Assembly (NCBI GenBank): GCA_020860445.1
Contig: JAJBUH010000138.1
Location: 9,840-73,839 of the forward strand
Length of the DNA stretch: 64,000 bases
Direction: 5' to 3'
DNA from: Bacteroidales bacterium
GTDB taxonomy: Bacteria > Bacteroidota > Bacteroidia > Bacteroidales > Muribaculaceae
Each line of letters begins with the position of its first letter. The stretch's first letter is position 1. Under the pieces are notes generated by a model. That model was not told where the DNA came from. It worked only from the letters and a program-made list of their open reading frames with translations, and did not search any database. Shown one piece after another: positions 29,630-51,915 of the stretch. The position numbers were made by a program, and so were the translations under genes.

Positions 29630-31150
29630 ATGATGAACAACTACATTAAGGGCGCCCTCATGCTGGGCGTGGCCGCTCTCTGCGGCAGTAGCGCAATGGC
29701 CGATGGCTATTGGCGCAACCTCAACAACGAGGTTCTCGAATACCCCGCATTCATCAAAGGCTGGTCAGGCGCCATCTCGGCCAGTGACAACAATGTGGCT
29801 GAAAGTTGGAACGGCGGTTTCGACCTATATCAGGTGCTCAACGACATGCCTGCTGGCGACTACACCCTCTCGATTAGCGCATTCTATCGCAACTGGAATG
29901 ATCCTGACTTCGCCAACAACGCATGGATCTACATCAACGATGTGAAAGCTCAAGTGGCTGACATCTCTGATGGCAATGACGTTCCTTGGAACCGTTACGA
30001 TGCCAACCAGGCCTTCCAGGCTGGCCGCTACGTCAACACAGTAAGCTGCACTCTCGCTGAGGAAGGTCCTCTCACCATCGGTATCCAGAGCACTGGCGGC
30101 TTTGTTGACGAGTGGACATGCTTTGGCAATGTCAAGCTAACTGGTCCCGACGGTGACATGACCGATCGCATTGTCAACGCTGACTTCTCATCTGACTTCA
30201 ACCCCGAAAGCAACGATGCAGTCGATGTATGGTGGGACCAAGTGTTTACCCCCACTCGCTGGAATCCAGTCAACTATGACCTAGCTATCAAGATGCCACA
30301 AATCAATCTCCATGGTGCAATTTATTCAAAGTGCAACTGCGCTGGTTGGAACTATGGCCAGTATGTGGACCTTGTGCCTGGCAAATATCGCTTGAGCATT
30401 CAGGGCCTCTATTGCCCTGGTGTTGAAACCAACCTTGAGGGCTGGGGTGCTGACTACAAATCTGAGTTTGCTGATCCTGTTGAAAAGGAAACTGCTCTTG
30501 ATCGTCACAACAATGACATGCACGGCTTGTTCCCAGTGATTTACTTCACCAACGGTGGTACTTTCGAAGGTGAGGACCAATTAGACGGAGATGGTTTCGG
30601 CCAATACAAGCCTATGGATTTGGAAGATGCTCAATATGACGTGCCCGATGCATTCTACTATGAGGTTAATCTTCCTTGCCTCTTCGACGAAGAGATGGAT
30701 AATTATATCGACATCGTTAACAACTATCCTTTTGATGTGAAGAGCCAAATGCCCGATGCTACTCCCGACGAGCGCATGGCCGCTTATCCAAATGCAACAG
30801 GTCACATTGACCGTGACAATGGTCACTTTGATGAGGTAATCGCTTACATGGTGCAGAATCCTGACAGCTATCGCGTATACCTCGAAGTTGAGGTTACTGA
30901 GGCTACCAAGGCATGGGTAGGCGTAAAGCGTGACATCGGCAACGATCCCAGCCGTCAGTGGACCGCATTCCGCGACTTCAAGCTGGAGCGTTGGACAGAG
31001 ACCAACACCCAAGGCATCAGCAGCGTGGCTAACGACGCAGAGGCTACTCCCGAATACTACACCATCCAGGGTATCCGCGTAGCTCAACCCACCCAGGGTG
31101 TCTACATCGTGAAGCAAGGCTCAAAGGTCACCAAGCAAGTCATCCGCTAA
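29630..31150 (+). CDS. PUL-encoded secreted protein of unknown function with T9SS C-terminal sorting domain
   Basis: Signal peptide and C-terminus EYYTIQGIRVAQPTQGVYIVKQGSKVTKQVIR. Confidence 0.7.
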   Translation: MMNNYIKGALMLGVAALCGSSAMADGYWRNLNNEVLEYPAFIKGWSGAISASDNNVAESWNGGFDLYQVLNDMPAGDYTLSISAFYRNWNDPDFANNAWIYINDVKAQVADISDGNDVPWNRYDANQAFQAGRYVNTVSCTLAEEGPLTIGIQSTGGFVDEWTCFGNVKLTGPDGDMTDRIVNADFSSDFNPESNDAVDVWWDQVFTPTRWNPVNYDLAIKMPQINLHGAIYSKCNCAGWNYGQYVDLVPGKYRLSIQGLYCPGVETNLEGWGADYKSEFADPVEKETALDRHNNDMHGLFPVIYFTNGGTFEGEDQLDGDGFGQYKPMDLEDAQYDVPDAFYYEVNLPCLFDEEMDNYIDIVNNYPFDVKSQMPDATPDERMAAYPNATGHIDRDNGHFDEVIAYMVQNPDSYRVYLEVEVTEATKAWVGVKRDIGNDPSRQWTAFRDFKLERWTETNTQGISSVANDAEATPEYYTIQGIRVAQPTQGVYIVKQGSKVTKQVIR

Positions 31151-31156
31151 ATTCAT

Positions 31157-31265
31157 AGCCTCGGAGAGGCTTAACCATGTTATCCCCAGGCTGTCGAGAC
31201 GCATAGCGTCGAGACTGCCTGGGGTTTTCACATCCCACCGCCAGCGAGCCTCGGAGAGGCTCAAC
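31157..31265 (+). repeat. Triple-hairpin intergenic element (E family), copy 2
   Basis: AGCCTCGGAGAGGCT, then CCCCAGG...CCTGGGG central hairpin, then CAGCGAGCCTCGGAGAGGCTCAAC. Confidence 0.75.
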
Positions 31266-31376
31266 TATGATTTTAATAAATTTTCTCGATTATTTCACAC
31301 ATTATTTACGGATTTTTCGTATTTTTGCCACACATTATCACTTGTGACAATTTATTACCTTAACAGATACCTGATT

Positions 31377-34058
31377 ATGCGAATCATTTCTACTGCTATT
31401 TTTGCCAGCTGCCTGATGCCGATGATGGCGCAGACGGCCAGCACGACCTTTGAGCCGGCTCCGGTGTCAGACATCAACGTCTACTTCTCGGTCGATGACG
31501 AGGGCGAGGCCTATCCCATCTTGTGGGGCCTCGACACCGCCTGGGACAGCGAGGAGAACATCCGTCGCGGCGTACGCTACATGGGCTCTGACATCATCGG
31601 CGTGGCCCGCGTGTCGTTCCAGCCCATCGACTTCCTCACCGAGGCCGTGCTTTCTGACCGCCAAGAAGCCAACTTGGTAGAGCGTCTGCGTAAGATTGCC
31701 CTTATCAATGGGGTAGGCGGCGTGAAGATTGTGCTCAACAACGACACCCCCGATGGCATGTACCTCGAATCGCTTGCCAACTCGGCCACGGACCCGGCTG
31801 CCTGCGAGGCATACTGCAACGTGATCTACGCTACTGCCCTCTCATGCCAGGAAAAAGGCTGGGAGGTGATTACCGCCTCGCCCCTCAATGAACCGGACTA
31901 TGTGTACAACCTGCAGGGCTCTCAGGACGACTTCCTGGCCATAGCCAAGATGCTCAAGACCTATCCGCAATTCAGCGACGGTTCGATCCGCATCAGCGGC
32001 GGCAACACCCTCAATTGTGACCAGGCCCAACCGTGGTATGACTACCTGCGCGACTATATCGACGAGGGTAATACCCACCAGCTCGCTGGCGTGTTTGACA
32101 ACTACGCATCATTCTTCGAGAATGTGCGCGCTGATGGCAAGTATGCTACTGCCGATGAGCTCCACAATATCATGGAGGCCATGGTGGGCGTGACCTACGG
32201 CATGCAGACTGGCATCTGGTGGGGCACTGCCGAATATGCCCGCGGCGAGTTCTGCAAGGCCAGTGGCGGCAAGCGTCTGGCTTATGATGAGAATCGCAAG
32301 GCTTGGACCTCGGCTGGCGTCTACCGCGCTCCCGATGGCAAGATCCAGGGATTCGTTGGCACATCTGAGCGTCAGGCCCTCGAGTGCGGCTACCGCTTTG
32401 TGTCGAAGGATAGGGACGTATTCTACAACGGCTACGGCCCCACTCGCGAGTTCTACACCAGCACCCCCGGTGGCACCAACTATCAGGACAAGCAGACCAA
32501 CGCCGAGTGTGTGATCAACATCACTTGGGGCGAGGACGTGCAACCTGTGATTGACGGCAACTACAAGGTGATGAACAAGCTCACCGGCATGCCGATGGGC
32601 ATCAAGGGTACTCCGGCAAACTGGTCGGTGCCTACGCAGTATGCCGATGGCGATGATACCGACTTTGGTTGGGAGGTTGTGCCAGTCGATGAGGGCATCG
32701 GTGGCGACTACAGCTATTTCACCTTCAACCTGGCCTCGAAGAATAATTTCAAGCTCGATGTCACCAATTGGAGCCTTGAGGACGGGGGATCCATCATCCT
32801 CTATGACGGAGGTCTGGGCAACAACGAACAGTGGGGTCTGAAATACGCCGGCGACGGCTATTTCCGCATCTTCAGTCGCCACAGCGCCTTGTATCTGACG
32901 CTTAAGGAGAACAGCGCTGACGATGGCGTGTATATAGTGCAGAAAGAATGGGCCGACGATGACGCTCAGCTGTGGCGCTTCATGCCAGTCGATGCTGAGT
33001 GCACTCAAGTGGCGCCGGCCGTGCCTCTTGACCTGAGAACTGAGAGTCGTCCCGGCGGTGTCTGGATTGACTGGACAGGCTGCGACTGCGGAGTGACCAC
33101 TGCTATTATCCTTCGCGCTGGCGAAGATGGCCAATACAATACTATCGCCAGGGATGTGGCTACTGATTATTTCTTCGACAACATGGCTCTGCCTGGTGTG
33201 ACTTATTCATATAAGATTAAGACAGTTGACTATTCTGGCAATATCTCTGAGGCATCTGAGCCAGTAGAGGGTAGGGTAAGCGACAGCCATGCGCTTCTCG
33301 CACAGTGGATGCTCGATCAAGAGCTCACCGACTGCACCGGCAATGGCAACAATCTGTTGACACCCTCATCGCTCAGCCAGCGCTACGCTAAGGGTCAGAA
33401 TGACGCTTATAGCCTCAATGTGGCTGGCAACCGCTTTGTGTCGATGCCTTATGCCCTCGGCAATCGCGAGGAGGCAACTTATTGCGCATGGCTGACTTGG
33501 CGTACCACTGGCGGCAACCAGGCTATCTTCAGCCTCGAGCGCGATGCTGACCATTATTGCTGGCTCGGTATCACCGAGGGTGGCAATCTGGGAGTGACCA
33601 TCAAGAATGGCGATGATGAGATAAGCGTATCTGGTGGCAGCCTCACCGCCAAGGAGTGGGCTCATGTTGCTTACACCATCACCCCCGATGAGATTGCCAT
33701 CTATCTCAATGGCGAAGAGGTGGCTCGCGAGGCCAACACTGCTCAGTTGACCCCGGCAGCCGTGGCTCCCGGCACATGCTATCTTGGTAAGCCTTTTGCC
33801 TATGATGCTGATTATCTGAATGCCTACGTGCAGGATGCACGCGTCTACAATTATGCTCTCTCGGCCTCGGAGATGGCTCAGGCTATGGATCTCTCCGGCA
33901 TCGCCAGCGCTGTCGCCGACAATTCGCCAGTCGTCGCCACTGAGTATTACAACCTGCAGGGCATGCGCATTCAGCAGCCCGCCTCCGGCACCGTGATCCG
34001 CGTCACCATCCACGCCGACGGCTCCCGCCGCTCCCAAAAGCTCCTCGTCACCGAGTGA
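31377..34058 (+). CDS. Multidomain T9SS-secreted putative glycoside hydrolase (TIM-barrel-like N-domain, ricin-B lectin, FN3, LamG-like, T9SS CTD)
   Basis: SPLNEPDYV (NEP acid/base-like), QxW-type motifs NEQWGL and AQLWRF, an FN3-like segment, LamG-like ...DARVYNYALSASEM. C-terminus YYNLQGMRIQQPASGTVIRV. Confidence 0.65.
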   Translation: MRIISTAIFASCLMPMMAQTASTTFEPAPVSDINVYFSVDDEGEAYPILWGLDTAWDSEENIRRGVRYMGSDIIGVARVSFQPIDFLTEAVLSDRQEANLVERLRKIALINGVGGVKIVLNNDTPDGMYLESLANSATDPAACEAYCNVIYATALSCQEKGWEVITASPLNEPDYVYNLQGSQDDFLAIAKMLKTYPQFSDGSIRISGGNTLNCDQAQPWYDYLRDYIDEGNTHQLAGVFDNYASFFENVRADGKYATADELHNIMEAMVGVTYGMQTGIWWGTAEYARGEFCKASGGKRLAYDENRKAWTSAGVYRAPDGKIQGFVGTSERQALECGYRFVSKDRDVFYNGYGPTREFYTSTPGGTNYQDKQTNAECVINITWGEDVQPVIDGNYKVMNKLTGMPMGIKGTPANWSVPTQYADGDDTDFGWEVVPVDEGIGGDYSYFTFNLASKNNFKLDVTNWSLEDGGSIILYDGGLGNNEQWGLKYAGDGYFRIFSRHSALYLTLKENSADDGVYIVQKEWADDDAQLWRFMPVDAECTQVAPAVPLDLRTESRPGGVWIDWTGCDCGVTTAIILRAGEDGQYNTIARDVATDYFFDNMALPGVTYSYKIKTVDYSGNISEASEPVEGRVSDSHALLAQWMLDQELTDCTGNGNNLLTPSSLSQRYAKGQNDAYSLNVAGNRFVSMPYALGNREEATYCAWLTWRTTGGNQAIFSLERDADHYCWLGITEGGNLGVTIKNGDDEISVSGGSLTAKEWAHVAYTITPDEIAIYLNGEEVAREANTAQLTPAAVAPGTCYLGKPFAYDADYLNAYVQDARVYNYALSASEMAQAMDLSGIASAVADNSPVVATEYYNLQGMRIQQPASGTVIRVTIHADGSRRSQKLLVTE

Positions 34059-34130
34059 AACGTAAGCACATAACCTTTACGTAAGCACATAACCTTTACG
34101 TAAGCACGGATGATACCATCCGCCACTTAG

Positions 34131-34239
34131 AGCCTCGGAGAGGCTCAACAACGTTAACCCCAGGCTGCCGAGGCGCTCCGCGCCGAGGCTGCCTGGGGTT
34201 AATTGGCCACCCACCCGGCGAGCCTCGGAGAGGCTCAAC
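34131..34239 (+). repeat. Triple-hairpin intergenic element (E family), copy 3
   Basis: Same architecture as copies 1-2. It lies at the left edge of accessory island I. Confidence 0.75.
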
Positions 34240-34456
34240 AGAAAATCAAATTTTCATATCTCTTGCAATTTTGCAAAATTTTAGATTTGTTAATGTAGTC
34301 ATATCCTATTGTAAACCAATGTGATATGAAATCATTACACGACTACCCTCCTCCTAAATGTGCTCAAAAAAGACACTTAAGGGATTTTTGCATTTCATTT
34401 CACCCCTTGTTTTTACCAAAAAATATCATTAACTTTGCAGAAAAATTACCTTAGAT

Positions 34457-35891
34457 ATGGAAGCCAAACTGATAGCGCGAGATCGAGAGATAGAGGAACT
34501 GAAGACAAGCTTGGAGTCGGATGAATCTGAGTTTGTAATTGTGTATGGGCGCCGACGAGTTGGAAAGACCTTCTTGATTGAAGAATTCTTTAATCGCACC
34601 TACGATTTCAAGTTTGTAGGGGGCCATAATATGCCAATTTCCTCCCAACTCAACAATTTCCGAAAGGCCCTTAAGAAATACTCCGGTGAAATGCCTCCAG
34701 AATTCTCTGATTGGTCAGAGGCTTTTGATGCTTTGGAAGAATGGATAGAGAGCATTGATGAGGACCGCAAAAAGATAATCTTTTTTGATGAGATGCCATG
34801 GATAGACCATCCTGACTCAGACTTTGTGCAATCATTGGAGTACTTTTGGAATAGTTGGGCCGCAGGTCGTGACGATATCCTGTTTTTAGCCACCGGGTCC
34901 TCCACCTCTTGGATGATAGATAATCTATTAGAGAATCAAGGAGGCTTGTACAACCGCATTACTACTCCAATCTACCTATCGCCTTTCAACCTTAGAGAAA
35001 CCGAAATGTATCTCAGGAAAAAGCGCGTGCCATGGAATAGATACCAAATCCTGCAATGCTATATGATCACGGGAGGTGTGCCATACTATCTGAAACTTTT
35101 CAACGCTAAACTGAGCGTGGCACAAAATATTGACAACCTCTGCTACCAACCAAAGGGTAAGCTCAGGATGGAATTTGACGAACTCTATCCGGCTCTATTT
35201 GCCGATTCGGAATTGTATTTACAGATAGCCCATCTGCTCTATGAGCATCAGGAGGGCCTAACTCGTACTGAGATTTTCGACCAAATCTCGGCTGAGGGAA
35301 GCAAGCTGACTCAGGCTCTTAAGAATCTGGAGCGCAGCGATTTTATCGCTCGTCGCTCACAATTTGGCAACAAGAAAAAGGATGCCGTGTACCGTCTGGT
35401 GGATTACTATTCGATATTCTATTTCAATTTCATAGAGAATGACCACACACTCAATCCTAACTGGTGGATAAATAATATGAATTCGCCTGAGGTGTTGGGT
35501 TGGATGGGCCGTACTTTCGAACTGATATGCCTCCAGCACCATCAGCAGATAAAGCAGGCGTTGGGCATATCTGGCATTTCTACCGAAGTTTCCACATGGC
35601 GGCAAAAAGGCAATCGCAAGGAGGGAATAAGGGGAGCTCAAATCGACATGGTTATAGAGCGAGCTGACCCTATGATCCATCTGTGCGAAATGAAGTTTAG
35701 CATAGACAAGTTTACCCTCACCCCACAATATGAAGAGCATTTGCGCAATAGGATGAGATTGTTTCAGGAGGCCACAGGTACAAAAAAAGACTCCACTGCT
35801 GACCTTTGTCACTACCTATGGCCTAAGCAATCCCACGGCCTACAGCACCATCCACTCAGACCTCACAATGGACTCTCTCTTCAATCCATAG
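34457..35891 (+). pseudogene. ATPase of the Arch_ATPase/DUF234 type with a C-terminal frameshift in an A7 run
   Basis: VIVYGRRRVGKTFL Walker A. After AAAAAAA (35782-35788) the annotated frame gives non-homologous sequence. The +1 frame reads TPLLTFVTTYGLSNPTAYSTIHSDLTMDSLFNP-stop (TAG 35889-35891), a plausible native C-terminus. Confidence 0.6.
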
Positions 35892-35925
35892 AAAACACAT
35901 TTTTTTACTCCTTACACGGCAAAAA

Positions 35926-35957
35926 TTTGGTGTTTCCAGATTTTTGCCGTAATTTTG
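35926..35957 (+). promoter_or_regulatory. Promoter P1 of the defence operon (cassette copy 1)
   Basis: TTTG (35926-35929), a 20-nt spacer, then TAATTTTG (35950-35957). The spacer is itself part of the hairpin ACGGCAAAAATTTGG/CCAGATTTTTGCCGT. Confidence 0.65.
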
Positions 35958-35960
35958 TGG

Positions 35961-36358
35961 TGCGCTGGAGGCTGGCGCGGCTCGAGAGCGAGCCTTAGGC
36001 TCCGGCGCTGACTTTACATACCGGCGTTTACTTTAGCGCTTAGTTCTTGTCATCGTGAAACTTCGCAACTTTCAAGAGACAGGCAAGGCTGGCAGTGAGT
36101 AGATGCCCCTGTTGTGGTATATACCACCGCGTGACTATCTGTCCCTCCCGGGGGATGGGTAGATCTGGTGCATATATATCCCACGCGTGGGGCCCTCTCA
36201 TTGCTCATCCTCCTTTTACGGGCAATGCGAAGGCCTCACAGTGTGGGATGAGCACGAGTGAGGATTCCCACGCTTTGTGTAAAGTGAAAAATGAAGAGTG
36301 AATAATGAAAAATGGCCTGGCCATGGGAGTCGGCTGGTCAAATCTTGCAATGCCTTAA
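35961..36358 (+). promoter_or_regulatory. Long structured 5' leader or candidate cis-regulatory RNA upstream of mod
   Basis: ~390 nt with no credible ORF, ~53% GC and dense palindromes/stems (35979-35994, 36114-36127, 36180-36191). Nested helices 36185-36191/36267-36273 and 36202-36210/36246-36254. Confidence 0.35.
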
Positions 36359-38170
36359 ATGCCAATCGACCGACCCCATCTGATAGAGCGCATTAAGAGC
36401 ATCGAGGGACTAACTCCTGACGAGCGCAGCCAACTGCTTGAGATGCTGCGCACTACGCCCAAATACGGCCTGGTGTGGGAGGACAAGCCCGAAGATGCCG
36501 AGCGCTTGCTCGAAGACAATCTGCCAGTACTCACCGAGGTGAAGGAGCGATACATCGCCGGTTCATCACCCGACAGCCCCAACCATATTCTCATCGAGGG
36601 CGACAACCTCCACGCCCTAACAGCCCTCACCTACACCCACGAGGGCAAAATCGACGTCATCTATATTGACCCGCCGTACAATACAGGCAACAAGGATTTC
36701 TGCTACAACGATAGCTATGTAGATGCGGAAGATTCTTTTAAACATAGTAAGTGGCTATCTTTCATGGTTAAACGTCTTCGTCTGGCCAAAAGACTTTTAT
36801 CAGAGAAGGGTGTAATCTTCATCTCCATTGACGATAATGAACAAGCACAATTAAAATTGCTTTGTGACTCTATCTATGGTCAAAATAATTTTTTGGGTAA
36901 CGTTATTTGGGAAAAAACAGATAGTCCACGAATGGATGTTAAGGGTTTCTATACTCGCCATGATTATATTTTAGTCTACAGAAACGAAGAGTTTACCTTA
37001 AAAAGAGTTCCCAATAAGGAAGTTCCAGCTCATTATAACAGGAAAGATGAAAAAGGTAGGCTCTACTACACCAAACCTCTAAGATTAATGGGAGGGCATC
37101 TAAGTGAAAGTTTGTTTTATTCTATCACAGCTCCCGATGGGACAATAGTCTTCCCCTATGAAAAAGACGGGAAAAAAGGAGGCTGGAGATGGAGTCAACA
37201 AAAATTCATTGATGAAAACGAGAGAATTGAATGGGTAAATGGTAAAAATGGATGGACACCTTATTTCCGTATTTATGCTGAAAATCTAAAGGAAGTTCCA
37301 GCGGCAACATTGTGGCCTTTTACAGAAGTAGGAAGCACTCGTACTGCAAAAGCAGAGTTCAACCAAATAATTGAGGATGGAAGATCTTTTAATTATCCCA
37401 AACCCACTTCTTTGATTAAATACATTGAGGTCATTGCCTCTGAACAAAATGCGACCATCCTCGATTTCTTTGCCGGCTCTGGCACTACCCTCCATGCCAC
37501 TATGCAACTTAATGCTGAGGATGGAGGCAAGCGGCAGTGCATCCTCGTGACCAATAACGAGAATGGCATCTGCGAGAATGTGACCTATGAGCGCAACAAG
37601 CGTGTCATCAACGGCTATACAACTCCTAAAGGCGTAGCCGTTGAGGGGCTGCATAACAATTCATTGAGATACTACCAGACCGATTTTGTGCCTCGCAAAA
37701 AGACCATGGCCAATATGCGCCGATTGGTCAACCTCGCTACTGACCTGCTTTGCATCAAGCATGATTTGTATGATGAGGCTCGATTCTTTGGCAAGAAGCT
37801 AAACAAGGATGTGGCTCGATTTTTCAGCAATGGCAAGAAACAAATGCTGATTCTCTATGATGAGCGAGCCGTTGACCCAGTGGCTGAGATTTTAGAGCAT
37901 CAAGCCGTGGATTCGCCAATCATAGTCTATGTATTCTCTCCCGACAATTACGCCTACGATGAGGAGTTTGCCGCCGTGGCCGACAAGGTAAACCTCTGCG
38001 CCCTCCCAGCCGCCATCTATGCTGCCTATCGCCATGTTCTCCCCAAAAAGAAACTCTATCACAAAGAGACACTGCAGGAGCCAACCGCTACCCCATCACC
38101 CAGCCCTCAAGGAATAGAGCAACTTCTGTTTGATCCCGATGAAGAGGAGGGGCCGGATGGTAGTGCGTAG
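36359..38170 (+). CDS. mod: Type III-like (beta-class) N6/N4 DNA methyltransferase, Mod
   Basis: Motif IV DVIYIDPPYNTG precedes motif I FFAGSGTT, with a long central variable region between them. 603 aa. Confidence 0.88.
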   Translation: MPIDRPHLIERIKSIEGLTPDERSQLLEMLRTTPKYGLVWEDKPEDAERLLEDNLPVLTEVKERYIAGSSPDSPNHILIEGDNLHALTALTYTHEGKIDVIYIDPPYNTGNKDFCYNDSYVDAEDSFKHSKWLSFMVKRLRLAKRLLSEKGVIFISIDDNEQAQLKLLCDSIYGQNNFLGNVIWEKTDSPRMDVKGFYTRHDYILVYRNEEFTLKRVPNKEVPAHYNRKDEKGRLYYTKPLRLMGGHLSESLFYSITAPDGTIVFPYEKDGKKGGWRWSQQKFIDENERIEWVNGKNGWTPYFRIYAENLKEVPAATLWPFTEVGSTRTAKAEFNQIIEDGRSFNYPKPTSLIKYIEVIASEQNATILDFFAGSGTTLHATMQLNAEDGGKRQCILVTNNENGICENVTYERNKRVINGYTTPKGVAVEGLHNNSLRYYQTDFVPRKKTMANMRRLVNLATDLLCIKHDLYDEARFFGKKLNKDVARFFSNGKKQMLILYDERAVDPVAEILEHQAVDSPIIVYVFSPDNYAYDEEFAAVADKVNLCALPAAIYAAYRHVLPKKKLYHKETLQEPTATPSPSPQGIEQLLFDPDEEEGPDGSA

Positions 38171-38295
38171 CACGATGCTTGTTTATTAACCCCACATGGA
38201 GTGCGTAGCACGGAATGTGGGGTATGCAATTCCTTTCTTCTCTTAAGAAGAGTGCGTAGCACGGCCCTGAAGCAACGTATATATTTTGACTCACA

Positions 38296-39699
38296 ATGAT
38301 TAAGAAACTACGATACCAACAGCAAGCCATCAAAGAACTGGTAGAGAAAGCCCTAAAGCTGCTCCACTCCCTGGGCGACCGCAAAAAGCTGATATTCCAA
38401 GCTCCAACCGGCTCGGGCAAGACTGTCATGATCAGCGAAGCCATGGCCCAACTGATGAGCGAGATAGACACCGACCCTACACTCACGCCACCGACATACA
38501 TTTGGGTTGCTCCCAACAAGCTGCATCAGCAGAGTCTCGAGAAGATGAAAGACTTCTTTGACGAGACACATACCCTGCGAGCCACTACCTACGATGGGTG
38601 CAACCACTCGGTAGGTGACCTCCTGCCCGAAGGACAAATCCTATTTGTCAACTGGGAGAGCATCAATAAGGACAAAAACATCCTGGTTCGCGATAGCGAG
38701 GGTTCCGCCTCACTCTACGACCTCACCGACCGCACCAAGGAGGAAGATATCCCCATCATCGTCATTATCGATGAAGAGCACCTATACGCTGGAGCCTCGG
38801 CCATACAGGCGCAAAAGGTGCTTAAGCGCATCAACCCTAAGTTGGAAATCCGCATCTCGGCCACGCCCAACAAGCAAGACCTGCACGAGAAGGTGACGGT
38901 GCAACGCAACGATGTCATCGCTGAGCAGATGATCAAGAAAGGCATCGTGCTCAATCCAGCACTCGATGTCACTCGCGAAGATGTCAATGGCCTCACCGAA
39001 TTGCTCATCGACCATGCTTTGGCAAAAAGAGATGAACTGGCCGAAGCATACCGCAAGCAAGGCAGTCGAGTGAATCCTCTATTGCTAATTCAACTGCCAA
39101 ATGATGGCTCAGAAAAAGTAACCGAGGAGGAAACTCGCATTATCAATTCAGTAAAGACGGTTCTCGAGGTGAAATACGATATCACCACTACCAATGGGCT
39201 GCTCGGCATCTGGCTGTCGAAAGAGAAGGAGAATCTTGATGGTATTGAGCGAGAGGATAATCTTACCAAAGCTCTGCTTTTCAAGCAAGCCATAGCCCTT
39301 GGTTGGGACTGCCCCCGAGCCGCTGTATTGTTGATTTTCCGCAAGATGGAGAGCATGCAATTTACGATGCAGACCGTGGGCCGCATCCTGCGTATGCCCG
39401 AGCATAAGCATTACATGGATCCGCAGCTCAACCAGGGATATGTCTATACCGACCTCAGCAAGGACAAAATCAGCATCGTAGCCGATGATATTGACTATTT
39501 CGCTAAAAACGAAACTGCCTACATCAAAGATGGTCTGGAAAACGTAACTCTCAAATCAGTCTACCGCGAACGCCTCAGCGAGGAACGCAACCGCCTACTG
39601 CCCAATTTTGGAGAATTGCTGCGTATGCATTTCACCAAGAAACTCCTGGGCCAAGCGCATCAGCAGACCCTTGATTTCCAACTTTTTGAAGACGAATGA
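38296..39699 (+). CDS. SF2 helicase/ATPase, Res-like N-terminal module
   Basis: FQAPTGSGKT (motif I), VIIDEEH (motif II), QTVGRILRMPE (motif VI). Confidence 0.8.
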   Translation: MIKKLRYQQQAIKELVEKALKLLHSLGDRKKLIFQAPTGSGKTVMISEAMAQLMSEIDTDPTLTPPTYIWVAPNKLHQQSLEKMKDFFDETHTLRATTYDGCNHSVGDLLPEGQILFVNWESINKDKNILVRDSEGSASLYDLTDRTKEEDIPIIVIIDEEHLYAGASAIQAQKVLKRINPKLEIRISATPNKQDLHEKVTVQRNDVIAEQMIKKGIVLNPALDVTREDVNGLTELLIDHALAKRDELAEAYRKQGSRVNPLLLIQLPNDGSEKVTEEETRIINSVKTVLEVKYDITTTNGLLGIWLSKEKENLDGIEREDNLTKALLFKQAIALGWDCPRAAVLLIFRKMESMQFTMQTVGRILRMPEHKHYMDPQLNQGYVYTDLSKDKISIVADDIDYFAKNETAYIKDGLENVTLKSVYRERLSEERNRLLPNFGELLRMHFTKKLLGQAHQQTLDFQLFEDE

Positions 39700-40658
39700 T
39701 TATGAGCCGCAAAGATTTATTTGGAGATATTGAAGCCAACAGAGCCTCAGCCGAAAAGCGTGGTATCAACTTTGATGTAGAGAAGATACAAGTCACACTG
39801 CTCAAAGATGTCGAGGTTGAGGGCGATGCACTTGAGGGCAACGAAATAATAAGTGTTGAAGGCAGCAAGCGAGTGAAATATTCACAGCATGCCACAGAGC
39901 TTGACCGTGTGTTCAATCAGTTCCTTTGGGATATGCTTAATGGCTACGAGCGCAAGCATACATTGGAATCTCTACACAATTATGTGCTGGAGATAATGGA
40001 AAAGCTATTCGGCCTCGATGGGTTTGAAGCCGTTAAGGTGATACTCTACCATAAGAATCGGCCAAAGTTTGAAGAGATAATACGCGATGCCTTGGCTGAA
40101 AATCTTGTCGAAGTACGTAGACGCAGACAGAACGCCCAAAAGCGGGCTTTCAAAGAGGTGCCTTGGGCTGTCCCCGAGACTCGCGACTACAATACCTCGA
40201 CTCACCGTACTGTGCCAGAGGCCGAGGCTCATGCGCTGCAGCCATTCTATCGGATGAATCAGGCTTCGCAGCCAGAGATAAGGTTTGAGCATTTCTTGGA
40301 AGACAACCGAGAGTACATTGATTGGTGGTACAAAAACGGCGACGAAGGCATGCAGCACTATGCCATCGCCTATATGGAGGGCGACAATCCAGCCCTGTTC
40401 TATCCCGACTTTGTGCTGCGCATGGCCAACGGCCAAGTGTTCATCTTTGACACCAAGACCAACGGCAGCGACCCTTATGCCGCTGCCAAGCACAACGCCC
40501 TTGTTGCCTATATGGAGGATCCCAACAACCCCAATCTGATGGGAGGAATCTTAATCCAAGATGGAGACCTATGGCGTTACTCGCTTGGCACCATCGAGAA
40601 TACCGATGACATCACTGGATGGATAGCATTCCACCCCTCAGACTACAAAAAATCCTGA
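39696..40658 (+). CDS. PD-(D/E)xK nuclease-like protein, Res-like C-terminal module
   Basis: YPDFVLRMANGQVFIFDTKT signature near the C-terminus. The ATGA overlap with the helicase ORF is at 39696-39699. Confidence 0.6.
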   Translation: MIMSRKDLFGDIEANRASAEKRGINFDVEKIQVTLLKDVEVEGDALEGNEIISVEGSKRVKYSQHATELDRVFNQFLWDMLNGYERKHTLESLHNYVLEIMEKLFGLDGFEAVKVILYHKNRPKFEEIIRDALAENLVEVRRRRQNAQKRAFKEVPWAVPETRDYNTSTHRTVPEAEAHALQPFYRMNQASQPEIRFEHFLEDNREYIDWWYKNGDEGMQHYAIAYMEGDNPALFYPDFVLRMANGQVFIFDTKTNGSDPYAAAKHNALVAYMEDPNNPNLMGGILIQDGDLWRYSLGTIENTDDITGWIAFHPSDYKKS

Positions 40659-40663
40659 AAATT

Positions 40664-40936
40664 ATGCCACGACAAAATCCCAAACAATCGGCCCAACAAC
40701 CGCGCTCGCAGCGCGGTGGCCTGGACCATACCTTTTTGCATTACGGCATACGCCAACCCGACCTTGAGGTAATCCTTGACCTATGCGACAGCCATGGCAT
40801 CGACCGAGATTGGCTGCGCGATGAGGTATTAAAAAACTTCCATGCAAAGAAAGTCGACGCCTTCGAAATATCAGATGCCGATGTAGAGCGTGTGCTAAAT
40901 GATGCCTTAACCAAACTACCAACCCCAATCCAATGA
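40664..40936 (+). CDS. Small (90 aa) operon protein of unknown function
   Basis: ATG lies 5 nt after the upstream stop, and its stop overlaps the next start (ATGA). No recognisable motif. Confidence 0.5.
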   Translation: MPRQNPKQSAQQPRSQRGGLDHTFLHYGIRQPDLEVILDLCDSHGIDRDWLRDEVLKNFHAKKVDAFEISDADVERVLNDALTKLPTPIQ

Positions 40937-42927
40937 TTATCACTCGCGTAAAAGCTCATAACTACAAGACTTACCTCGATCTTGACCTCGATCTCACTGT
41001 CGAGGCCGAGCGGCCCATCATCTTGATTGGAGGCATGAATGGGGGAGGCAAGACTACTCTCTTTGAGGCTATCTATGGGGCTCTGTATGGGCTGAATATT
41101 GCCAACGAACGCCAATTCCAAGAGCTCCTCAACGCCGGAGCTCCCCCTACTGAGAAACCTGAGATTGTGCTTGAATTGTCCTTCAAAGGTCTTGTCACTG
41201 GCACGGAACAAAAGTATAACTTGCGACGCACTTATAGAGTGATGTCGAGCAGGCCCGTCGAGAATGTGCGCCTCAACCTCAATGGCAATGTCGTAAGCTA
41301 CGGTACCCAGACCCCAGCCGGTGAACGACACCGCTATGAGCAGATGCTCAACAAGATAATCAAGGCCAACCTGCCCCAGGAATTGAGCAAATACTTCTTG
41401 TTTGATGCCATGCAAAGCAGCGAATTGCTCAAGGAGGGAGTGTTCTCCCAAATCATTCGCGACAATATCCAGAATGTGATGGGATTTAACAAATACCTTA
41501 TGCTGAAGCATGCTGCCGAGAAGCTGCATCAAAAGAAGGCAGCCGAGCGAATAAAAGCCAAAAAGGAGCGTGAGGAATACGAAAGGCTATGCGCCGAAAA
41601 AGAACAGAAGGTGCAAAGGAAAACTGCTCTTGAAGCTGCCTTAGACCAATCTTCGCGCCGACTGCAGGAAATGCAAGAAGCTTATGATGCTGCAAGGGAG
41701 GGTGCTCGGAAGGATGCCAATGCTCGCCAACGAATCTCTGAAATTGATGCTAAAATCAACGAAGCTAATTCAAGTGCCGAGCGCTATTGCACTGAGGCTA
41801 AAGATTTGGTTGACAACCTTGAGGGTAGCGTATTTCTACCAAAGCTCGCTTCGCAACTCTCACAAGAAATTGCCAACATCGTTCGCATAAAGGATAGCCT
41901 AAAGAAAGAGCCGATTGAATCACCCCAGCAGTTGCGCGATATCACTCACCGAGTATTGGACCTGCTAAGGCAAATGCAACTGTTGGATGCCAATGCCAAC
42001 GAAGAAGACATTATCGCTCAGCTTATCTCCAGGCGTTGCGCCGATGGCAAAGATGACCCCTACGCCATATTGGAGGACGATGACGTAGCTGCGCTTGTAG
42101 GACTGGTCAACAGTGGCGGTCATAACACATTCCCTCACTTGAGTGAATCGAAGATGGCTTGCGAGACAAAACTTGGCAATCTCGATGAATGGCATCGCCA
42201 ACGCTATTTCCTACAGCAGTCAATAGATGGCAATGATCAAGAGGTAATCAATAACTATGAGACGGAGGCTGAAAACCAACGCAACATTGAAATAGAGATT
42301 GAGAATCTCACTGTCGAAATACAACGTCTCGACAATCGCATACATACGTTTGACATTCAGATTCAGGAAGAGCCTGACTTGAAATTTGATACTCTGGTCA
42401 AACTGCGTCCTTTCTTTGAGGACGTAGCTAAGACTTTGCTTCAGCGCAAGCGCCAACAGATCGAGACACAGATGCAAGAGCAACTCAACATATTGCTCCT
42501 ATCATATAAGGGCCACATACAGCGAGTAGAGATCAGCGAGAATCTTGAGGATTTCTCAATCAAGATATTCCACTCGGCTGGCAATGAGATTGCGCTCAGC
42601 CAACTCAACGCCGCATCTAAGCAAATATTCATCCAGGTGCTGCTCAAAATACTGCGCAATCTTGGCGATTACAATCCCCCTGTGATGATTGACACGGTAA
42701 TGGGCGTGCTCGACAATGAGAGCCGCGATGCGCTGATGCAAGAGTATTTCCCACAGCTTGCCGACCAGACTATACTGCTTTGCACTACATCTGAGATTCG
42801 CAAGGATTCGGACTACAAGCAAATCGAGGCTTTCATCTCCAAGACCTATACATTGCAGCGCGATGTGGCATTGCAGCGCACCGAGGTTGTGGAGGGATAT
42901 TTCGGAACACCGCTTAACAGAGATTGA
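40933..42927 (+). CDS. DndD-like SMC/ABC-type ATPase
   Basis: GGMNGGGKTTL Walker A, YFLFDAMQ, a long coiled-coil-like middle, LSQLNAASKQ signature-like, PPVMIDTVMGVLD Walker B/D-loop. Compare DndD IIDTPLGRLD, recalled from memory. Confidence 0.7.
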   Translation: MIITRVKAHNYKTYLDLDLDLTVEAERPIILIGGMNGGGKTTLFEAIYGALYGLNIANERQFQELLNAGAPPTEKPEIVLELSFKGLVTGTEQKYNLRRTYRVMSSRPVENVRLNLNGNVVSYGTQTPAGERHRYEQMLNKIIKANLPQELSKYFLFDAMQSSELLKEGVFSQIIRDNIQNVMGFNKYLMLKHAAEKLHQKKAAERIKAKKEREEYERLCAEKEQKVQRKTALEAALDQSSRRLQEMQEAYDAAREGARKDANARQRISEIDAKINEANSSAERYCTEAKDLVDNLEGSVFLPKLASQLSQEIANIVRIKDSLKKEPIESPQQLRDITHRVLDLLRQMQLLDANANEEDIIAQLISRRCADGKDDPYAILEDDDVAALVGLVNSGGHNTFPHLSESKMACETKLGNLDEWHRQRYFLQQSIDGNDQEVINNYETEAENQRNIEIEIENLTVEIQRLDNRIHTFDIQIQEEPDLKFDTLVKLRPFFEDVAKTLLQRKRQQIETQMQEQLNILLLSYKGHIQRVEISENLEDFSIKIFHSAGNEIALSQLNAASKQIFIQVLLKILRNLGDYNPPVMIDTVMGVLDNESRDALMQEYFPQLADQTILLCTTSEIRKDSDYKQIEAFISKTYTLQRDVALQRTEVVEGYFGTPLNRD

Positions 42928-44525
42928 CCATGAAACTTAATTTCGATGATTTGAGGCAAGCCGAAGGGCTGCTCGATATGGTGATGCCCCTCAAGGATAA
43001 GATTGAAGAGCGCCTAAGATTGAAAAATGCTCCAGAAGGGAACAAATTGCCAACTCTCACTGGCAACCAAATTCTGCGCATCTGCATGATAGCGGGATTT
43101 TCTATGACTGAGCCCAGAAATCTGGCTGAGGTCAGAGAGACGCAGTTATCACGACAGAACAATCGATTCTACTCAACCTTCTTCAATCGCAACAACACCA
43201 AAGCCCTGTTTGAAGCTTTGATCAAATTGCGATATAAGGACATCATTGAGGATTGGGAAGAGCCACGAATTGCTTCACGCATCATAGCTTATGAGGCTAC
43301 TCGTGGGTTCCACTATCTGATGGATGAGAGTAATCTCAATTCTTTTCTTTTCGCATCGTCTTCGGGACGCGGATTGTCGCGCTCGATCCCCGCACTTGAC
43401 TTAATCATTGGCCATTATGACGGTGATGATGAGATGGAGGCAGACTTGAATCTTAATTCTCGCGCTGTGCCTAATGCTCAGATTATTATCGCTGGTTCTA
43501 CTGGTTCGGGCAAGTCAAATCTCATTTCGGTGATTATTCAGCAATTCCGCACCCTGTCTTCTGAGACTGCCTATCCGGTCAATTTCTTGCTCTTTGATTA
43601 CAAGGGCGAATTTTCTGATCCTGCTAATCGCCGTTGGCTCACTTATTTCGACATTGATGCCAGCGCATTGCTCGATCCGATGGATAAGCCTTTGCCATTC
43701 AACCCTTTCAGGGATTTCAGAGGCAAATCCCAGTCAGAACTGAATATCTATTCTACGGAATTGACTTCGGCTCTCGCCGCTCTCGACAATGTAGTACTAA
43801 GCGCTAAGATGAGCAGCCGTCTGAGCGAGGCCATCATCAAGGCGTATGCCCATAATCAGAAAGCGCCAATTACATTTGAGAAACTGCTCAATGCTTATCG
43901 AGGTCTGTTGCCAAAGGCTGAGACCGAAGACAGCATCACGGCTGTGCTGTCTCAATTGGTGCGCAATCACCTCTTTGATACCGAGGACCGGACCAATCTA
44001 ATCAAGAATTGCTTTATCGTAAAGCTGGACAAATACCCTAAGGACGGTCCTCTTGCCAAAGCCATCGTATATTTCCTGATCTCTAAGCTGAATGATATAT
44101 ACCAGACGCTTGAACCTCAAGCCACAACTGACGATGTGGTGGAAATACGCCATTTCACTATCATTGATGAGGCTCACTATATGCTCAGTTTTGAGAATAA
44201 GCCACTGCGCGAATTGATACGTGTTGGCCGCAACAAGGGACTTAGCATTATTCTGGCCACGCAGGATATGGCAAGCTATAGAGCTAATAACAATGGCGGT
44301 TTCGACTTCTACGCCAATGCGCAATACCCTCTCATCATGAAGCAGCAGACGATTGATGATTCGGTGCTTAAGGGAATCTTCGGTGTCACGGGGCGCGAGC
44401 TCGCCGAGCTGCGCTCAGCCATCTCCAACCTGCAGCTCGGAGAGCTTATCATCAAGGACCAAAATGCCGCCATCCTCGACATCGGCAAGCCCTACAAAAA
44501 GATCAAAGTGAATCGATTGATATAA
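42924..44525 (+). CDS. HerA/FtsK/VirB4-type P-loop ATPase (DUF87-like) with an N-terminal ~170-aa extension
   Basis: AGSTGSGKSN Walker A, FDYKGEF, TIIDEAHYML Walker B, ILATQD. Confidence 0.72.
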   Translation: MTMKLNFDDLRQAEGLLDMVMPLKDKIEERLRLKNAPEGNKLPTLTGNQILRICMIAGFSMTEPRNLAEVRETQLSRQNNRFYSTFFNRNNTKALFEALIKLRYKDIIEDWEEPRIASRIIAYEATRGFHYLMDESNLNSFLFASSSGRGLSRSIPALDLIIGHYDGDDEMEADLNLNSRAVPNAQIIIAGSTGSGKSNLISVIIQQFRTLSSETAYPVNFLLFDYKGEFSDPANRRWLTYFDIDASALLDPMDKPLPFNPFRDFRGKSQSELNIYSTELTSALAALDNVVLSAKMSSRLSEAIIKAYAHNQKAPITFEKLLNAYRGLLPKAETEDSITAVLSQLVRNHLFDTEDRTNLIKNCFIVKLDKYPKDGPLAKAIVYFLISKLNDIYQTLEPQATTDDVVEIRHFTIIDEAHYMLSFENKPLRELIRVGRNKGLSIILATQDMASYRANNNGGFDFYANAQYPLIMKQQTIDDSVLKGIFGVTGRELAELRSAISNLQLGELIIKDQNAAILDIGKPYKKIKVNRLI

Positions 44526-44528: not shown

Positions 44529-44569
44529 CTACGGCAAAAAATCTGGTGAAAACCAGATTTTTGCCGTAG
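44529..44569 (+). terminator. Operon terminator hairpin, sequence-related to the promoter cassette
   Basis: CTACGGCAAAAAATCTGGT-GAAA-ACCAGATTTTTGCCGTAG followed by TTATTTATT. It shares CCAGATTTTTGCCGTA with P1. Confidence 0.7.
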
Positions 44570-44665
44570 TTATTTATTCTGGTTTTTCTCCTAACAGACG
44601 CACTAAGTTTAGGAATTCTCGTGAAACCTCTGCCAGTCGGGGATTATCATTTCTGCTTATAAGTG

Positions 44666-44830: not shown

Positions 44831-44943
44831 TATTGTATTTATTTAGTTATTGGTACAAAATACTGTTTGTATTTTAACGAAGAGATATCGCTGAATGTTT
44901 TTGTATGGCTCGCTCTCGAGCCGCGCCAGCCTCCAGCGCACCA

Positions 44944-44975
44944 CAAAATTACGGCAAAATTCTGTAAACACCAAA
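44944..44975 (-). promoter_or_regulatory. Promoter P2 (cassette copy 2, inverted)
   Basis: Minus strand TTTG (plus-strand CAAA 44972-44975), a 20-nt spacer, then TAATTTTG (plus-strand CAAAATTA 44944-44951). Confidence 0.6.
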
Positions 44976-45033
44976 TTTTTTGTAAAATTAAACCTCAGAG
45001 GGGGCTAAAAGGGAAAATGGTTTTGATTTTTGA

Positions 45034-45087: not shown

Positions 45088-45807
45088 ATGGGACAATTTA
45101 TCAATGTAGGAAATGCTCGCTTCCGCAGAGCACTGGACAGCAAATATGTTGACAAGACTCAGCTCATTGCGGCTGTCAACAGCACCCTCTTTAAGGAGTG
45201 GAATATGAGTTGCGTCACTCGTTGCCGTAGGTTTGGAAAATCTATGGCAGCTTCGATGCTCTGCGCCTATTATGATAAGTCCTGTGACTCTAGGGAATTG
45301 TTCAAAGGATTGTCTATTGCTAAAGATCCATCCTTTGAAAAGCATCTAAACAAGTATCCCGTGATTTTCATTGATATGAGTATAATCATATCGAGATTCG
45401 GTCATGATGCGGATATAGTAGATAAGATGCAAAAAGAGATAAGCAATGAGCTTTTAGAGGTCTACCCCGAGGTGAAGATGCGCGATGAGGATGACTTAAT
45501 GGATTTGATCCTGCGAATCGCTAATCACACGGGAGAGCCATTCCTTATGATTATCGATGAGTGGGATGCGATATGTCGCGAGTTCAAAAAGAGCGAAGCC
45601 CCTATGGACAAATATATCACCCTGCTCCGTCGCTTTTTCAAAGGCAGCAATGCTCCGCAAGCTTTCATAGGAGCTTACATCACCGGGATTCATGCGCTTA
45701 AAGAATATAATGACTTATTGATCCCAAACAATTTTTGGGAATATACTGAAGATCAGATGCTCAATCTCAAACCTACGACCCAGAAACCAAGAAGCATACA
45801 TGCTTGA
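45088..45807 (+). CDS. AAA-ATPase-like domain protein (DUF1703-type), N-terminal half only
   Basis: RCRRFGKSMAASML P-loop-like and IIDEWD. It is 239 aa versus 549-584 aa for paralogues in this window, and the PD-(D/E)xK C-terminal half is absent. Confidence 0.6.
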   Translation: MGQFINVGNARFRRALDSKYVDKTQLIAAVNSTLFKEWNMSCVTRCRRFGKSMAASMLCAYYDKSCDSRELFKGLSIAKDPSFEKHLNKYPVIFIDMSIIISRFGHDADIVDKMQKEISNELLEVYPEVKMRDEDDLMDLILRIANHTGEPFLMIIDEWDAICREFKKSEAPMDKYITLLRRFFKGSNAPQAFIGAYITGIHALKEYNDLLIPNNFWEYTEDQMLNLKPTTQKPRSIHA

Positions 45808-46099: not shown

Positions 46100-46199
46100 T
46101 CCAGCTGAAGAACTGCGCTCAGCCATCTCCAACCTACAGCTCGGCGAGCTAATCATCAAGGACCAAAACGCCGCTCTCCTCGACATCGGCAAGCCCTAC
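46100..46199 (+). pseudogene. 3' relic of a second HerA-like ATPase gene
   Basis: 46113-46199 matches 44409-44495 at 81/87 nt by hand alignment. It encodes ...EELRSAISNLQLGELIIKDQNAALLDIGKPY, and no upstream remainder of the gene is present. Confidence 0.8.
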
Positions 46200-48164: not shown

Positions 48165-48193
48165 CGAGGCTATGAGGAGCCGAAACCATCAGG

Positions 48194-51909: not shown

Positions 51910-51915
51910 CCCCAT

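Follow-up and report, generated by a model that had tools for sequence, protein, structure and literature searches.

A structured leader RNA ahead of surface-protein and defence genes in Bacteroidales: a candidate transcription attenuator

What is the role of the nearly 400 nucleotides (nt) which separate the first gene of a restriction-modification operon from the gene upstream of it in a Muribaculaceae genome, and which seem to encode nothing? The question is raised by positions 35961-36358 of a 64,000-nt stretch of DNA from a Bacteroidales bacterium (assembly GCA_020860445.1, contig JAJBUH010000138.1, positions 9,840 to 73,839 of the forward strand); we call this whole stretch the window, and all coordinates below refer to it. 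A first-pass annotation, made from the letters alone, had seen here a palindrome-dense leader and had proposed a cis-regulatory RNA, a set of DNA operators or decayed sequence. We report that the leader is one copy of a large structured RNA to which no Rfam family corresponds. In gut Bacteroidales, this RNA precedes many surface-protein and anti-phage defence genes, whose transcription it probably gates. A structured, non-coding, cis-located regulatory RNA is supported; the earlier interpretation as a whole is so only in part, being right in kind and wrong in detail.

The structure is already apparent from the window copy. The RNA 35962-36285 has a minimum free energy (MFE) of -152.8 kcal/mol, as compared to -113.8 +/- 4.9 kcal/mol for 100 dinucleotide shuffles, none of which is as stable (z = -8.0).

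A leader family and the genes behind it

A blastn search with 35890-36360 gave collinear matches to about 36023-36280 in 14 of the 24 other genomes of the genus and in none of 16 genomes of other families. The 14 homologous loci align well and share the conserved blocks GCGTTTAC, TTCTTGAC, GAAACTTCGCAACTTTCA, GCAACGGTAGATGCC, GCGTGGGCTTCTGCGTTGCTCGTTC, GGGCAATGCGAAGGCCTC, GGGACGAGCAAC and CCCACGCTTTTTT. By means of nhmmer and pattern searches we gathered 74 distinct full-length copies from Bacteroidales genomes and aligned them with MAFFT (alignment A2); counts out of 74 refer to this set, and designations such as L030 to single loci. Full-length copies occur in metagenome-assembled genomes labelled Prevotella, Prevotellaceae, Paludibacteraceae, Bacteroidaceae, Muribaculaceae, Porphyromonadaceae, Parabacteroides and Ca. 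Aphodosoma. The window's own 4.1-Mb genome holds 15 copies according to the nhmmer profile, with scores of 24.6 to 164 bits. Two of them lie in the window: the leader core at 36019-36281 on the + strand (157.7 bits, E 5.8e-46, the third score in this genome) and a second copy at 63329-63577 on the - strand.

The 15-nt motif GGCAATGCGARRGCC has one to eight exact matches in each of 113 genomes out of 158 of the genus, its reversed control being found in 4 genomes. Across the order, it is present in 20 of 301 sampled genomes, belonging to 14 of 209 genera, and several of these genomes have three to seven matches. Outside the order it turned up in 14 sampled genomes, with one match each bar one. 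As the reversed control is equally frequent there (again 14 genomes), the matches outside the order are background.

A promoter box TAnnTTTG is found at most 200 nt upstream in 56 of the 58 copies with enough flanking sequence, mostly 57-73 nt before GCGTTTA. TAnnTTTG is the -7 element of Bacteroidota, TTTG and TAnnTTTG together making up the -33/-7 consensus. At the other end, 65 of the 74 copies finish with a stem followed by a run of at least four T. An open reading frame (ORF) on the same strand starts within 450 nt downstream of 70 of the 74 copies, at a median distance of 64 nt; 58 start within 120 nt. Only 3 of these 70 gaps between leader and gene contain a second TAnnTTTG box, so expression of the downstream genes seems to rely on read-through of transcription begun at the leader promoter. 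As judged by such motifs, the element lies in a 5' untranslated region (UTR), between a promoter and a same-strand gene without a promoter box of its own, and its expression platform across the family would be an intrinsic terminator, namely the last stem (Y:Z, see below) with its U-tract. The family is estimated to span about 320-340 nt from transcription start to terminator, with a core of about 230-300 nt. Between terminator and start codon, 24 of the 48 copies tested have a hairpin with a G-rich loop of GGGA type, where shuffles lead one to expect 5.8; it sits 10-30 nt before the start codon, and a sub-group shares UCCGA...GGGAU...UCGGA.

Which genes would be controlled in this way? We scanned the first downstream protein of 55 copies against Pfam. 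Eight are BspA-type or other leucine-rich repeat (LRR) proteins. Five are DNA methylases (the type III mod of the window, three further N6_N4 enzymes and one C5 enzyme), and five more are of restriction type (GmrSD, an NgoFVII-like PLD nuclease, two PLD-SNF2 helicases and DUF559). LysM is carried by three, and sorting tails of the type IX secretion system by two. Single cases are BACON, GtrA, a glycosyl-transferase, a Ser/Thr kinase, FHA, a dynamin-like GTPase, PAPS reductase, a NusG-like protein, a double zinc ribbon, PD40, DUF4988, DUF2971 and a weak match to a phage receptor-binding domain. Two proteins have weak coiled-coil matches only, and 18 have no Pfam match. In the window's own genome, 7 of the 15 copies stand ahead of DNA-modification or restriction-type genes. 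The association of leader and type III mod itself recurs: the Mod of a Prevotellaceae locus (L030) is 44% identical to that of the window over 409 residues, and the Mod of another Muribaculaceae locus (L097) is 34% identical. The leader had been suspected of delaying Res relative to Mod. This is unlikely, as LRR, LysM, kinase, glycosyl-transferase and other non-restriction genes follow the same leader, which, to judge from these neighbourhoods, is not a device peculiar to the timing of Mod and Res.

In Bacteroidales of the gut and rumen, both the cell surface and the defences against phages are variable, for which invertible promoters and NusG-like factors are usually held responsible. A conserved RNA of about 330 nt ahead of the same classes of genes would add a layer of control at the level of RNA, and with it a ready-made regulon. 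For RNA biology, the interest lies in a large family which covaries very strongly, matches nothing in Rfam and joins its loops in an unusual architecture. In genome annotation, the long GC-rich stretches left "empty" before such operons become a recognisable element; in the window, the leader is predicted to delimit the real transcription unit of the type III / DndD-like / HerA-like operon.

Some copies are found on viral or proviral contigs of IMG/VR: L222, L254, L264 and L267 carry a full-length one, L248 has one which is cut at the end of the locus, and L203, L168 and L211 carry the 3' domain (terminator and loop) only. The copy of L222 precedes a gene with a PAPS-reductase domain, as do the genomic copies L067 and L077. 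In the INPHARED phage collection, blastn at its 'distant' setting found no match to the leader.

Covarying helices and competing folds

Along the RNA, the strands follow each other in this order: strand W (GCGUUUAC...UUCUUGAC); loop L5, with the 5' halves of the helices Pa, Pb (CUUCGCA) and Pg; strand X (GUCAAGAA...GCAACGGUAGAUGC); the variable hairpin Pv; strand Y (GCGUGGG...GUUGCUCGUUC); loop L3, with the 3' half of Pg, GGGCAA, the 3' half of Pb (UGCGAAG), GCCU and the 3' half of Pa; and strand Z (GGACGAGCAAC...CCCACGC), then U's. W and X pair through W1:X2 and W2:X1, and Y and Z through Pd and Pc. The helices Pa, Pb and Pg link the loop of W:X to the loop of Y:Z and cross both stems.

We counted the base pairs of W1:X2, Pa, Pb, Pd and Pc over the 74 sequences. 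The fraction of paired cells is 94.7%, as compared to 84.6% in column shuffles, and none of 500 shuffles reaches it; the covariation score is 0.418 versus 0.224, and slid controls are 35-47% paired. Changes on both sides, that is compensatory ones, are seen at 31 of the 41 pairs. W1:X2 is paired in 92.5% of cells. Pa (91.3%) is almost free in sequence, with compensation at 8 of its 9 pairs and up to 49 of the 74 copies doubly changed at one pair. Pb (98.8%) is nearly invariant and has compensation at 6 of its 7 pairs; in the alignment read by eye, seven divergent copies (L152-L158) rewrite both of its strands with compensation. Pd (94.4%) and Pc (97.0%) make up the nested helix of about 90 nt which the first-pass annotation had pointed out in the window: this helix is real, and it is the terminator hairpin of the family. 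Conservation and covariation among homologous loci, whose absence was to refute a regulatory RNA, are both strong.

Where MAFFT misaligns, we compared instead the duplex energy of each strand with its own partner strand and with the partner strands of other copies (in kcal/mol). The cognate duplex is the better one in 100% of cases for Pa (-12.2 versus -3.3), in 97% for Pg (-10.8 versus -3.6), in 99% of the 74 copies for Y:Z (-32.5 versus -26.3), in 95% for W2:X1 (-8.8 versus -5.55) and in 81% for the base of Pv (-8.4 versus -6.4). Within the window's own genome too, the sequences of Pa, Pg and Pv differ among copies. The comparison of copies makes a strong case that these elements covary: a 5' hairpin W:X, the variable middle hairpin Pv, a terminator hairpin Y:Z, and a loop-loop pairing of about 23 base pairs (bp) made of Pa, Pb and Pg.

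Does this complementarity serve the RNA or the DNA? In the 41 pairs, G-U or U-G cells number 389 and A-C or C-A cells 32. This excess of G-U means that selection acts on the RNA in the sense of the genes, and it argues against palindromes maintained at the level of DNA. It contradicts the operator array which had been proposed, in our terms an array for a controller protein of the restriction-modification system. The palindromes 36114-36127 and 36180-36191 would suit such an array, but neither is kept in the 73 other copies, and the same element stands ahead of non-restriction genes. The decayed gene is contradicted as well, for Pfam finds no protein homology (the only sizeable ORF has no match) and the covariation, which also tells against operators, is of RNA type. 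We find both readings hardly credible.

The same asymmetry bears on the idea of a palindromic mobile DNA (of the MITE, REPIN, ERIC or Correia type) or of a mobile promoter cassette, whose arms would be complementary for DNA-level reasons. Orientation and spacing to promoter and gene are strict, the orientation being fixed in 70 of the 74 copies, and copies within one genome are highly diverged, none of them near-identical as far as we saw. No terminal inverted repeats or target-site duplications were noticed, although they were not searched for systematically. It is true that, like ERIC, Correia and REPIN repeats, the leader is multi-copy (up to 15 copies per genome), intergenic and presumably transcribed, and that nearly its whole core can fold as one long imperfect hairpin; it also sits ahead of accessory, often horizontally moving genes, a few copies are on IMG/VR viral contigs, and the promoter part of the window copy lies inside a 77-nt inverted repeat. 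Fixed orientation and spacing, a strand-specific excess of G-U and deep divergence nevertheless set it apart from those repeats, and a mobile DNA seems to us very improbable.

If the element acts as RNA, does it adopt one fold or two? Two states can be written. In state A, W:X, Pv and Y:Z would form, and Y:Z would act as a terminator; state B would be a rod, in which W:Z, Pa, Pb, Pg, X:Y and Pv follow each other. The rod (calculated as a nested fold with Pa and Pb enforced) is the MFE structure of 57 of the 74 copies, and lies on average 11 kcal/mol below the fold in which the terminator is enforced. Two columns of Y, 293 and 296, covary both with partners in X (86 and 82) and with partners in Z (342 and 339). 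We propose that transcription from the leader promoter would stop at the Y:Z terminator unless the RNA adopts the competing fold, where the loop-loop helices and X:Y would keep Y off Z; a rigid L5:L3 duplex of about 23 bp would hold the ends of L3 apart and so hinder the closure of Y:Z. The balance would be set by a signal, which might be a protein, a small molecule or the kinetics of transcription, and a single signal could control as many as 15 operons in a genome, most of them for surface proteins and DNA modification or restriction.

The MFE of the rod, the pairing of X with Y and the double covariation of columns 293 and 296 lead us to favour such a two-state attenuator. We hold it reasonably probable, from these sequence comparisons, that the leader is a cis-acting transcription-attenuation RNA of Bacteroidales working in this way, the mechanism and its trigger being what we deduce rather than observe. 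A more specific version is offered tentatively, as a conjecture which may well fail: the leader would be a signal-responsive antitermination RNA class (riboswitch or protein-gated) specific to Bacteroidales, coupling up to 15 operons per genome (restriction-modification, other anti-phage systems, BspA-type and other surface proteins) to one intracellular signal, through an intramolecular pairing of about 23 bp between two hairpin loops in competition with a long terminator.

An attenuator had been suspected before in another form. In the window, the word TCCCACGC is present twice (36179-36186 and 36266-36273), and GCGTGGG was supposed to choose between the two. The alignment of the 74 copies does not bear this out: the arrangement is private to the window copy, CCCAC never preceding GCGTGGG in the 73 others. 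The competing pairings which covary in the family are different ones, W:X, Pa/Pb/Pg and, more weakly, X:Y.

A number of observations weigh against a two-state attenuator. The W:Z pairing, predicted by RNAalifold, was rejected, as its covariation signal is nil: the cognate duplex is the better one in 61% of cases (-16.6 versus -15.7 kcal/mol). X:Y is paired in 80-83% of cells, with some double changes (at 86-293, GC in 22 and AU in 15), and its cognate duplex is better in 73% (-17.5 versus -15.9). The helices were both picked and counted on one MAFFT alignment, made of related copies, so that the shuffle counts overstate significance. W resembles Y and X resembles Z; the potential to form a rod could be a by-product of an old internal duplication, and all the covarying helices could coexist in one pseudoknotted or kissing fold without any switching. 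A riboswitch should reveal its ligand through its genes, and no shared pathway among the 55 first downstream genes indicates one. None of the four NusG-family genes of the window's own genome lies on a contig with a leader element. Finally, the window copy itself fits poorly: Pg is lost (-2.6 kcal/mol, equal to the control), Pa is weak (-6.0), the U-tract is among the 9 of 74 with a T-run of at most three, and it is one of the 8 copies out of 74 where the terminator fold beats the rod, by +3.7 kcal/mol. Its Y:Z duplex of -36.1 kcal/mol makes a very strong terminator stem. With a strong stem, a weak U-tract, no Pg and a weak Pa, this copy is partly degenerate and may be a leaky or fixed variant.

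Part of this would be explained by a constitutive leader, with a single pseudoknotted or kissing fold serving as a fixed module: it would stabilise the 5' end of the mRNA, be a processing site or an insulator, or terminate a fixed part of the transcripts and so keep expression low. The five helices with the best support (W:X, Pa, Pb, Pc and Pd) have no nucleotide in common, and a single pseudoknot, 94.7% paired, accommodates them all; the pairings needed for a switch (X:Y and W:Z) have weak or no covariation, and the downstream genes have no common pathway. However, some 23 bp between two closed loops would be topologically strained, nested folding favours the rod by 11 kcal/mol in most copies, and columns 293 and 296 each covary with one partner in X and another in Z. 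In addition, many unpaired nucleotides are invariant, which is more typical of a binding site. We consider a constitutive leader unlikely.

The transcript could also act in trans, as a stand-alone or 5'-UTR-derived small RNA (sRNA) of about 330 nt ending at the terminator, with Pv or Pa/Pg setting its targets and the genes receiving leak-through only. Here the layout cuts both ways. The promoter box of its own (56 of 58) and the stem with U-tract (65 of 74) are what a terminated sRNA needs, but in 70 of the 74 copies an ORF on the same strand follows directly, and a box is present in only 3 of the 70 gaps, so that the genes appear to depend on the transcript. Likewise, a conserved scaffold with hypervariable segments and a rod-like MFE structure in 57 of 74 copies would suit an sRNA, but the variable segments pair within the same molecule and leave no free guides. 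This reading is, in our opinion, quite unlikely, and we keep to the two-state attenuator in what follows.

Known regulatory RNAs

Is the leader a known RNA? Rfam 15 gives two matches in 33000-39000 of the window at E up to 1, none of them on the element, and three in the 14 homologous loci (56,888 nt) at E up to 5, all unrelated. The covariance models of lysM-Prevotella, Bacteroidales-1, Bacteroides-1, 6S and the riboswitch classes do not match the leader. A scan of 30000-42000 for tRNA and tmRNA found none.

Like terminator-type riboswitches and attenuators, the leader lies in a 5' UTR, has a structured domain followed by a stem with U-tract, and may have competing pairings at the 5' strand of the terminator. 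Unlike known riboswitches, it is without Rfam match and much larger (core of about 230-300 nt), with two hairpins whose loops are complementary over about 23 bp; unlike metabolite riboswitches, its regulon suggests no ligand. Attenuator leaders differ from it by their leader peptide: reading the upstream sequences by eye, we saw no conserved small ORF, a reading which is not a formal or systematic ORF test. The riboswitch classes for cyclic di-GMP have many copies per genome ahead of diverse surface genes, and the leader resembles such second-messenger riboswitches in having many copies per genome before functionally mixed genes.

In Bacteroides, the NusG-like protein UpxY acts by antitermination in the 5' UTRs of capsular polysaccharide loci. 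The leader shares with these the Bacteroidales hosts and a long 5' UTR, with a promoter of sigma-A type before it and genes for surface or polysaccharide functions after it, and behind one copy (L015) come a NusG-like gene and DUF6056. That gene is, unlike in UpxY loci, the only NusG-like one among the 55 first downstream genes, and we know of no conserved RNA fold in UpxY leaders. As far as gene neighbourhoods tell, a link with UpxY or NusG is not supported.

CopA and CopT form an extended kissing complex which resolves into a four-way junction. They are the nearest analogue of a coexisting fold, since the loops of two hairpins are complementary well beyond a kiss of 6-7 bp; in the leader, by contrast, the hairpins belong to one molecule, with loops of about 35 nt, three helices and no antisense gene arrangement. 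FopS are short sRNAs linked to polysaccharide utilization loci, and we set aside their identity with the leader on that general knowledge only.

The processive antitermination RNAs (HK022 put, Bacillus EAR and conAn of Gram-positive conjugative elements; see PMC8191782) are structured cis RNAs near the start of long accessory operons, and the leader is predicted to be able, like them, to modify read-through of terminators. Unlike the leader, these RNAs are not known to contain the regulated terminator, and they have no sequence or structure in common with it. Weinberg et al. (2017, PMC5737381) describe the lysM-Prevotella motif as a candidate cis-regulatory RNA, located in Prevotella in the 5' UTRs of lysM genes, and three of our 55 first genes carry LysM. 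We rejected identity with this motif: a LysM-linked copy (L022, 481 nt), scanned alone at E up to 10, matched neither lysM-Prevotella nor any bacterial family of Rfam 15, giving only eukaryotic miRNA, snoRNA and lncRNA models far below the gathering score. The motif strings of the leader were not found in the literature searched, nor in eight supplementary files of Fremin and Bhatt (2021), files 7 and 8 lying outside the search. The surveys of the Breaker laboratory by Narunsky (2024) and Brewer (2021) have no occurrence of Bacteroid*, Prevotella, Porphyromonas, leucine-rich or restriction. The RNA family thus appears to be new, as far as Rfam 15 and limited literature searches go.

The window copy and its surroundings

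All the features which had been listed for the window leader can be found in its sequence, and we describe them here along the + strand together with those of the family. A hairpin ACGGCAAAAAT...ATTTTTGCCGT followed by AATTTTG (35916-35950) overlaps the -33 region of the leader promoter; we deduce that it probably serves the upstream ATPase gene as intrinsic terminator, and a related hairpin comes directly after the last gene of the operon (44530-44567). The promoter itself (35926-35957) consists of TTTG (35926-35929), a 20-nt spacer and TAATTTTG (35950-35957), from which a transcription start near 35962 may be deduced. Repeat search and blastn on the own genome show that 35921-35997, that is the promoter with the first 35 nt or so of the leader transcript, forms the left arm of an inverted repeat of 77 nt, the other arm of which (44904-44980) is 96% complementary.

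The MFE structure begins with a 5' stem-loop GCGCUGGAGGCU...AGGCUCCGGCGC (35962-36008), whose inner hairpin GGCTCG-AGAG-CGAGCC (35979-35994) can be read directly in the sequence. It is unlike the GCAGARGCC or G-rich 5' domain common in other copies: the strict 5' motif is present in 19 of 68 copies and the G-rich one in 36 of 68, and the window copy has neither. A direct repeat (CCGGCGCTGACTTTA at 36002-36016 and CCGGCGTTTACTTTA at 36021-36035) leads into the core. There, strand W (36024-36051), the 5' strand of the hairpin H12, is made of W1 (GCGTTTAC, 36024-36031) and W2 (TTCTTGTC, 36044-36051). Loop L5 (36050-36081) holds the 5' halves of Pa (36050-36058) and Pb (CTTCGCA, 36061-36067) and the 5' region of Pg (36071-36081). 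Strand X (36079-36107), with X1 (36079-36091) and X2 (36098-36107), pairs with W and has Y as a weaker alternative partner.

The variable hairpin Pv (36107-36184), delimited from the alignment, the duplex of its base stem and the MFE structure, is semi-conserved at its base only (of the GGTATATA / TATATATCC type) and contains the perfect palindrome GTGGTATATACCAC (36114-36127); a second one, CCCACGCGTGGG, lies at 36180-36191. None of the 73 other copies has either palindrome, the direct repeat or the second TCCCACGC; not being conserved in the family, these features are probably incidental. The terminator hairpin H34 (36185-36273), established by covariation and duplex energies, has on strand Y the 5' halves of Pd (36185-36192) and Pc (36201-36210), and on strand Z the 3' halves of Pc (36246-36255) and Pd (36267-36273). 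As had been remarked, GCGTGGG (36185-36191) is complementary to CCCACGC (36267-36273), and TGCTCATCC (36202-36210) to GGATGAGCA (36246-36254). Its loop L3 contains the 3' halves of Pg (36210-36221), Pb (TGCGAAG, 36226-36232) and Pa (36236-36244). The weak U-tract TTTGTGTA (36274-36281) has a run of three, TTT being followed by GTGTA.

The A/G-rich terminal GTGAAAAATGAAGAGTGAATAATGAAAAATGG tract had been recognised as a host-type word. It is indeed a host repeat, a heptamer (AATGAAA)n microsatellite, here written AGTGAAA/AATGAAG/... (36278-36312, from blastn and repeat counts), which is spread over the genome independently of the leader family and which other copies lack at this place; 68 of the 77 own-genome blastn matches of the window leader land on it. 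By comparison of copies, one heptamer array has been inserted into the window leader, between the terminator and the small hairpin CTGGCC-ATGGGAGTC-GGCTGG (36319-36339), which has a loop of GGGA type and lies about 20 nt before the start codon of mod. Such arrays are dispersed through the genome, often inverted and facing each other (for example at 1461-1560 and 1586-1618 of L004).

The leader is non-coding, its 68-residue ORF (36095-36301) being without Pfam match, with one caveat: another ORF (34457-35998) reaches into the first 38 nt. The tail of the latter lies past a frameshift at an A-run near 35781-35787, as shown by translation in three frames; the genuine C-terminus of the ATPase is presumably in the frame which ends with TAG at 35889-35891, judging by the ATPase family, and the PADLOC profile PDC-S27 covers residues 1-445 only. 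This upstream PDC-S27 / ATPase_2 gene, frameshifted at poly-A, could be a pseudogene, an assembly error or a case of slipped-strand variation.

The second copy in the window (63329-63577, -) scores 133.8 bits and has a GAGAGCC variant of Pb with a compensating AATCT. It is trailed by small ORFs only (63 and 75 residues, the former without Pfam match) and may be an orphan or a leader of small proteins.

The first gene under the leader is the type III mod (36359-38170, +; Pfam N6_N4_Mtase 1.7e-36, PADLOC MTase_III 9.7e-97), and the operon runs on to 44525. It comprises mod, a ResIII helicase, a 320-residue ORF, an Sp-DndD-like ORF, a DndD/PbeC-like ATPase and a HerA/DndH-like ATPase. In 38296-44525, the Res-like part is split into a 467-residue ResIII helicase and the overlapping 320-residue ORF, which has a weak REase_III match at its C-terminus. 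As read from these domains, the system of the window is a hybrid and not a textbook type III.

The 77-nt inverted repeat (35921-35997 and 44904-44980) brackets this whole operon of about 9 kb together with a small convergent gene, and in both arms there is a complete TTTG...TAATTTTG promoter, directed inward. An inversion switch was considered as regulator and rejected: with the promoter complete in both arms, inversion would not switch expression. We take the repeat for a promoter module that has been duplicated. A third copy, partial (93% over 40 nt), is found at 53822-53861, and a related site at 44538-44577; by eye, the start codon of a putative ORF on the + strand seems to follow the third copy closely, near 53975. 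A 90-nt direct repeat (44406-44495 and 46110-46199, 92% identical) copies the 3' end of the HerA-like gene to the region following a truncated PF09820 ATPase gene (45088-45807), and may be what is left of a second, related operon. Short repeats of a different family (AGCCTCGGAGAGGCTCAAC..., TTAACCCCAGGC...) occur in both orientations between genes of the window, at 34119-34240, 48147-48183 and 51905-52039.

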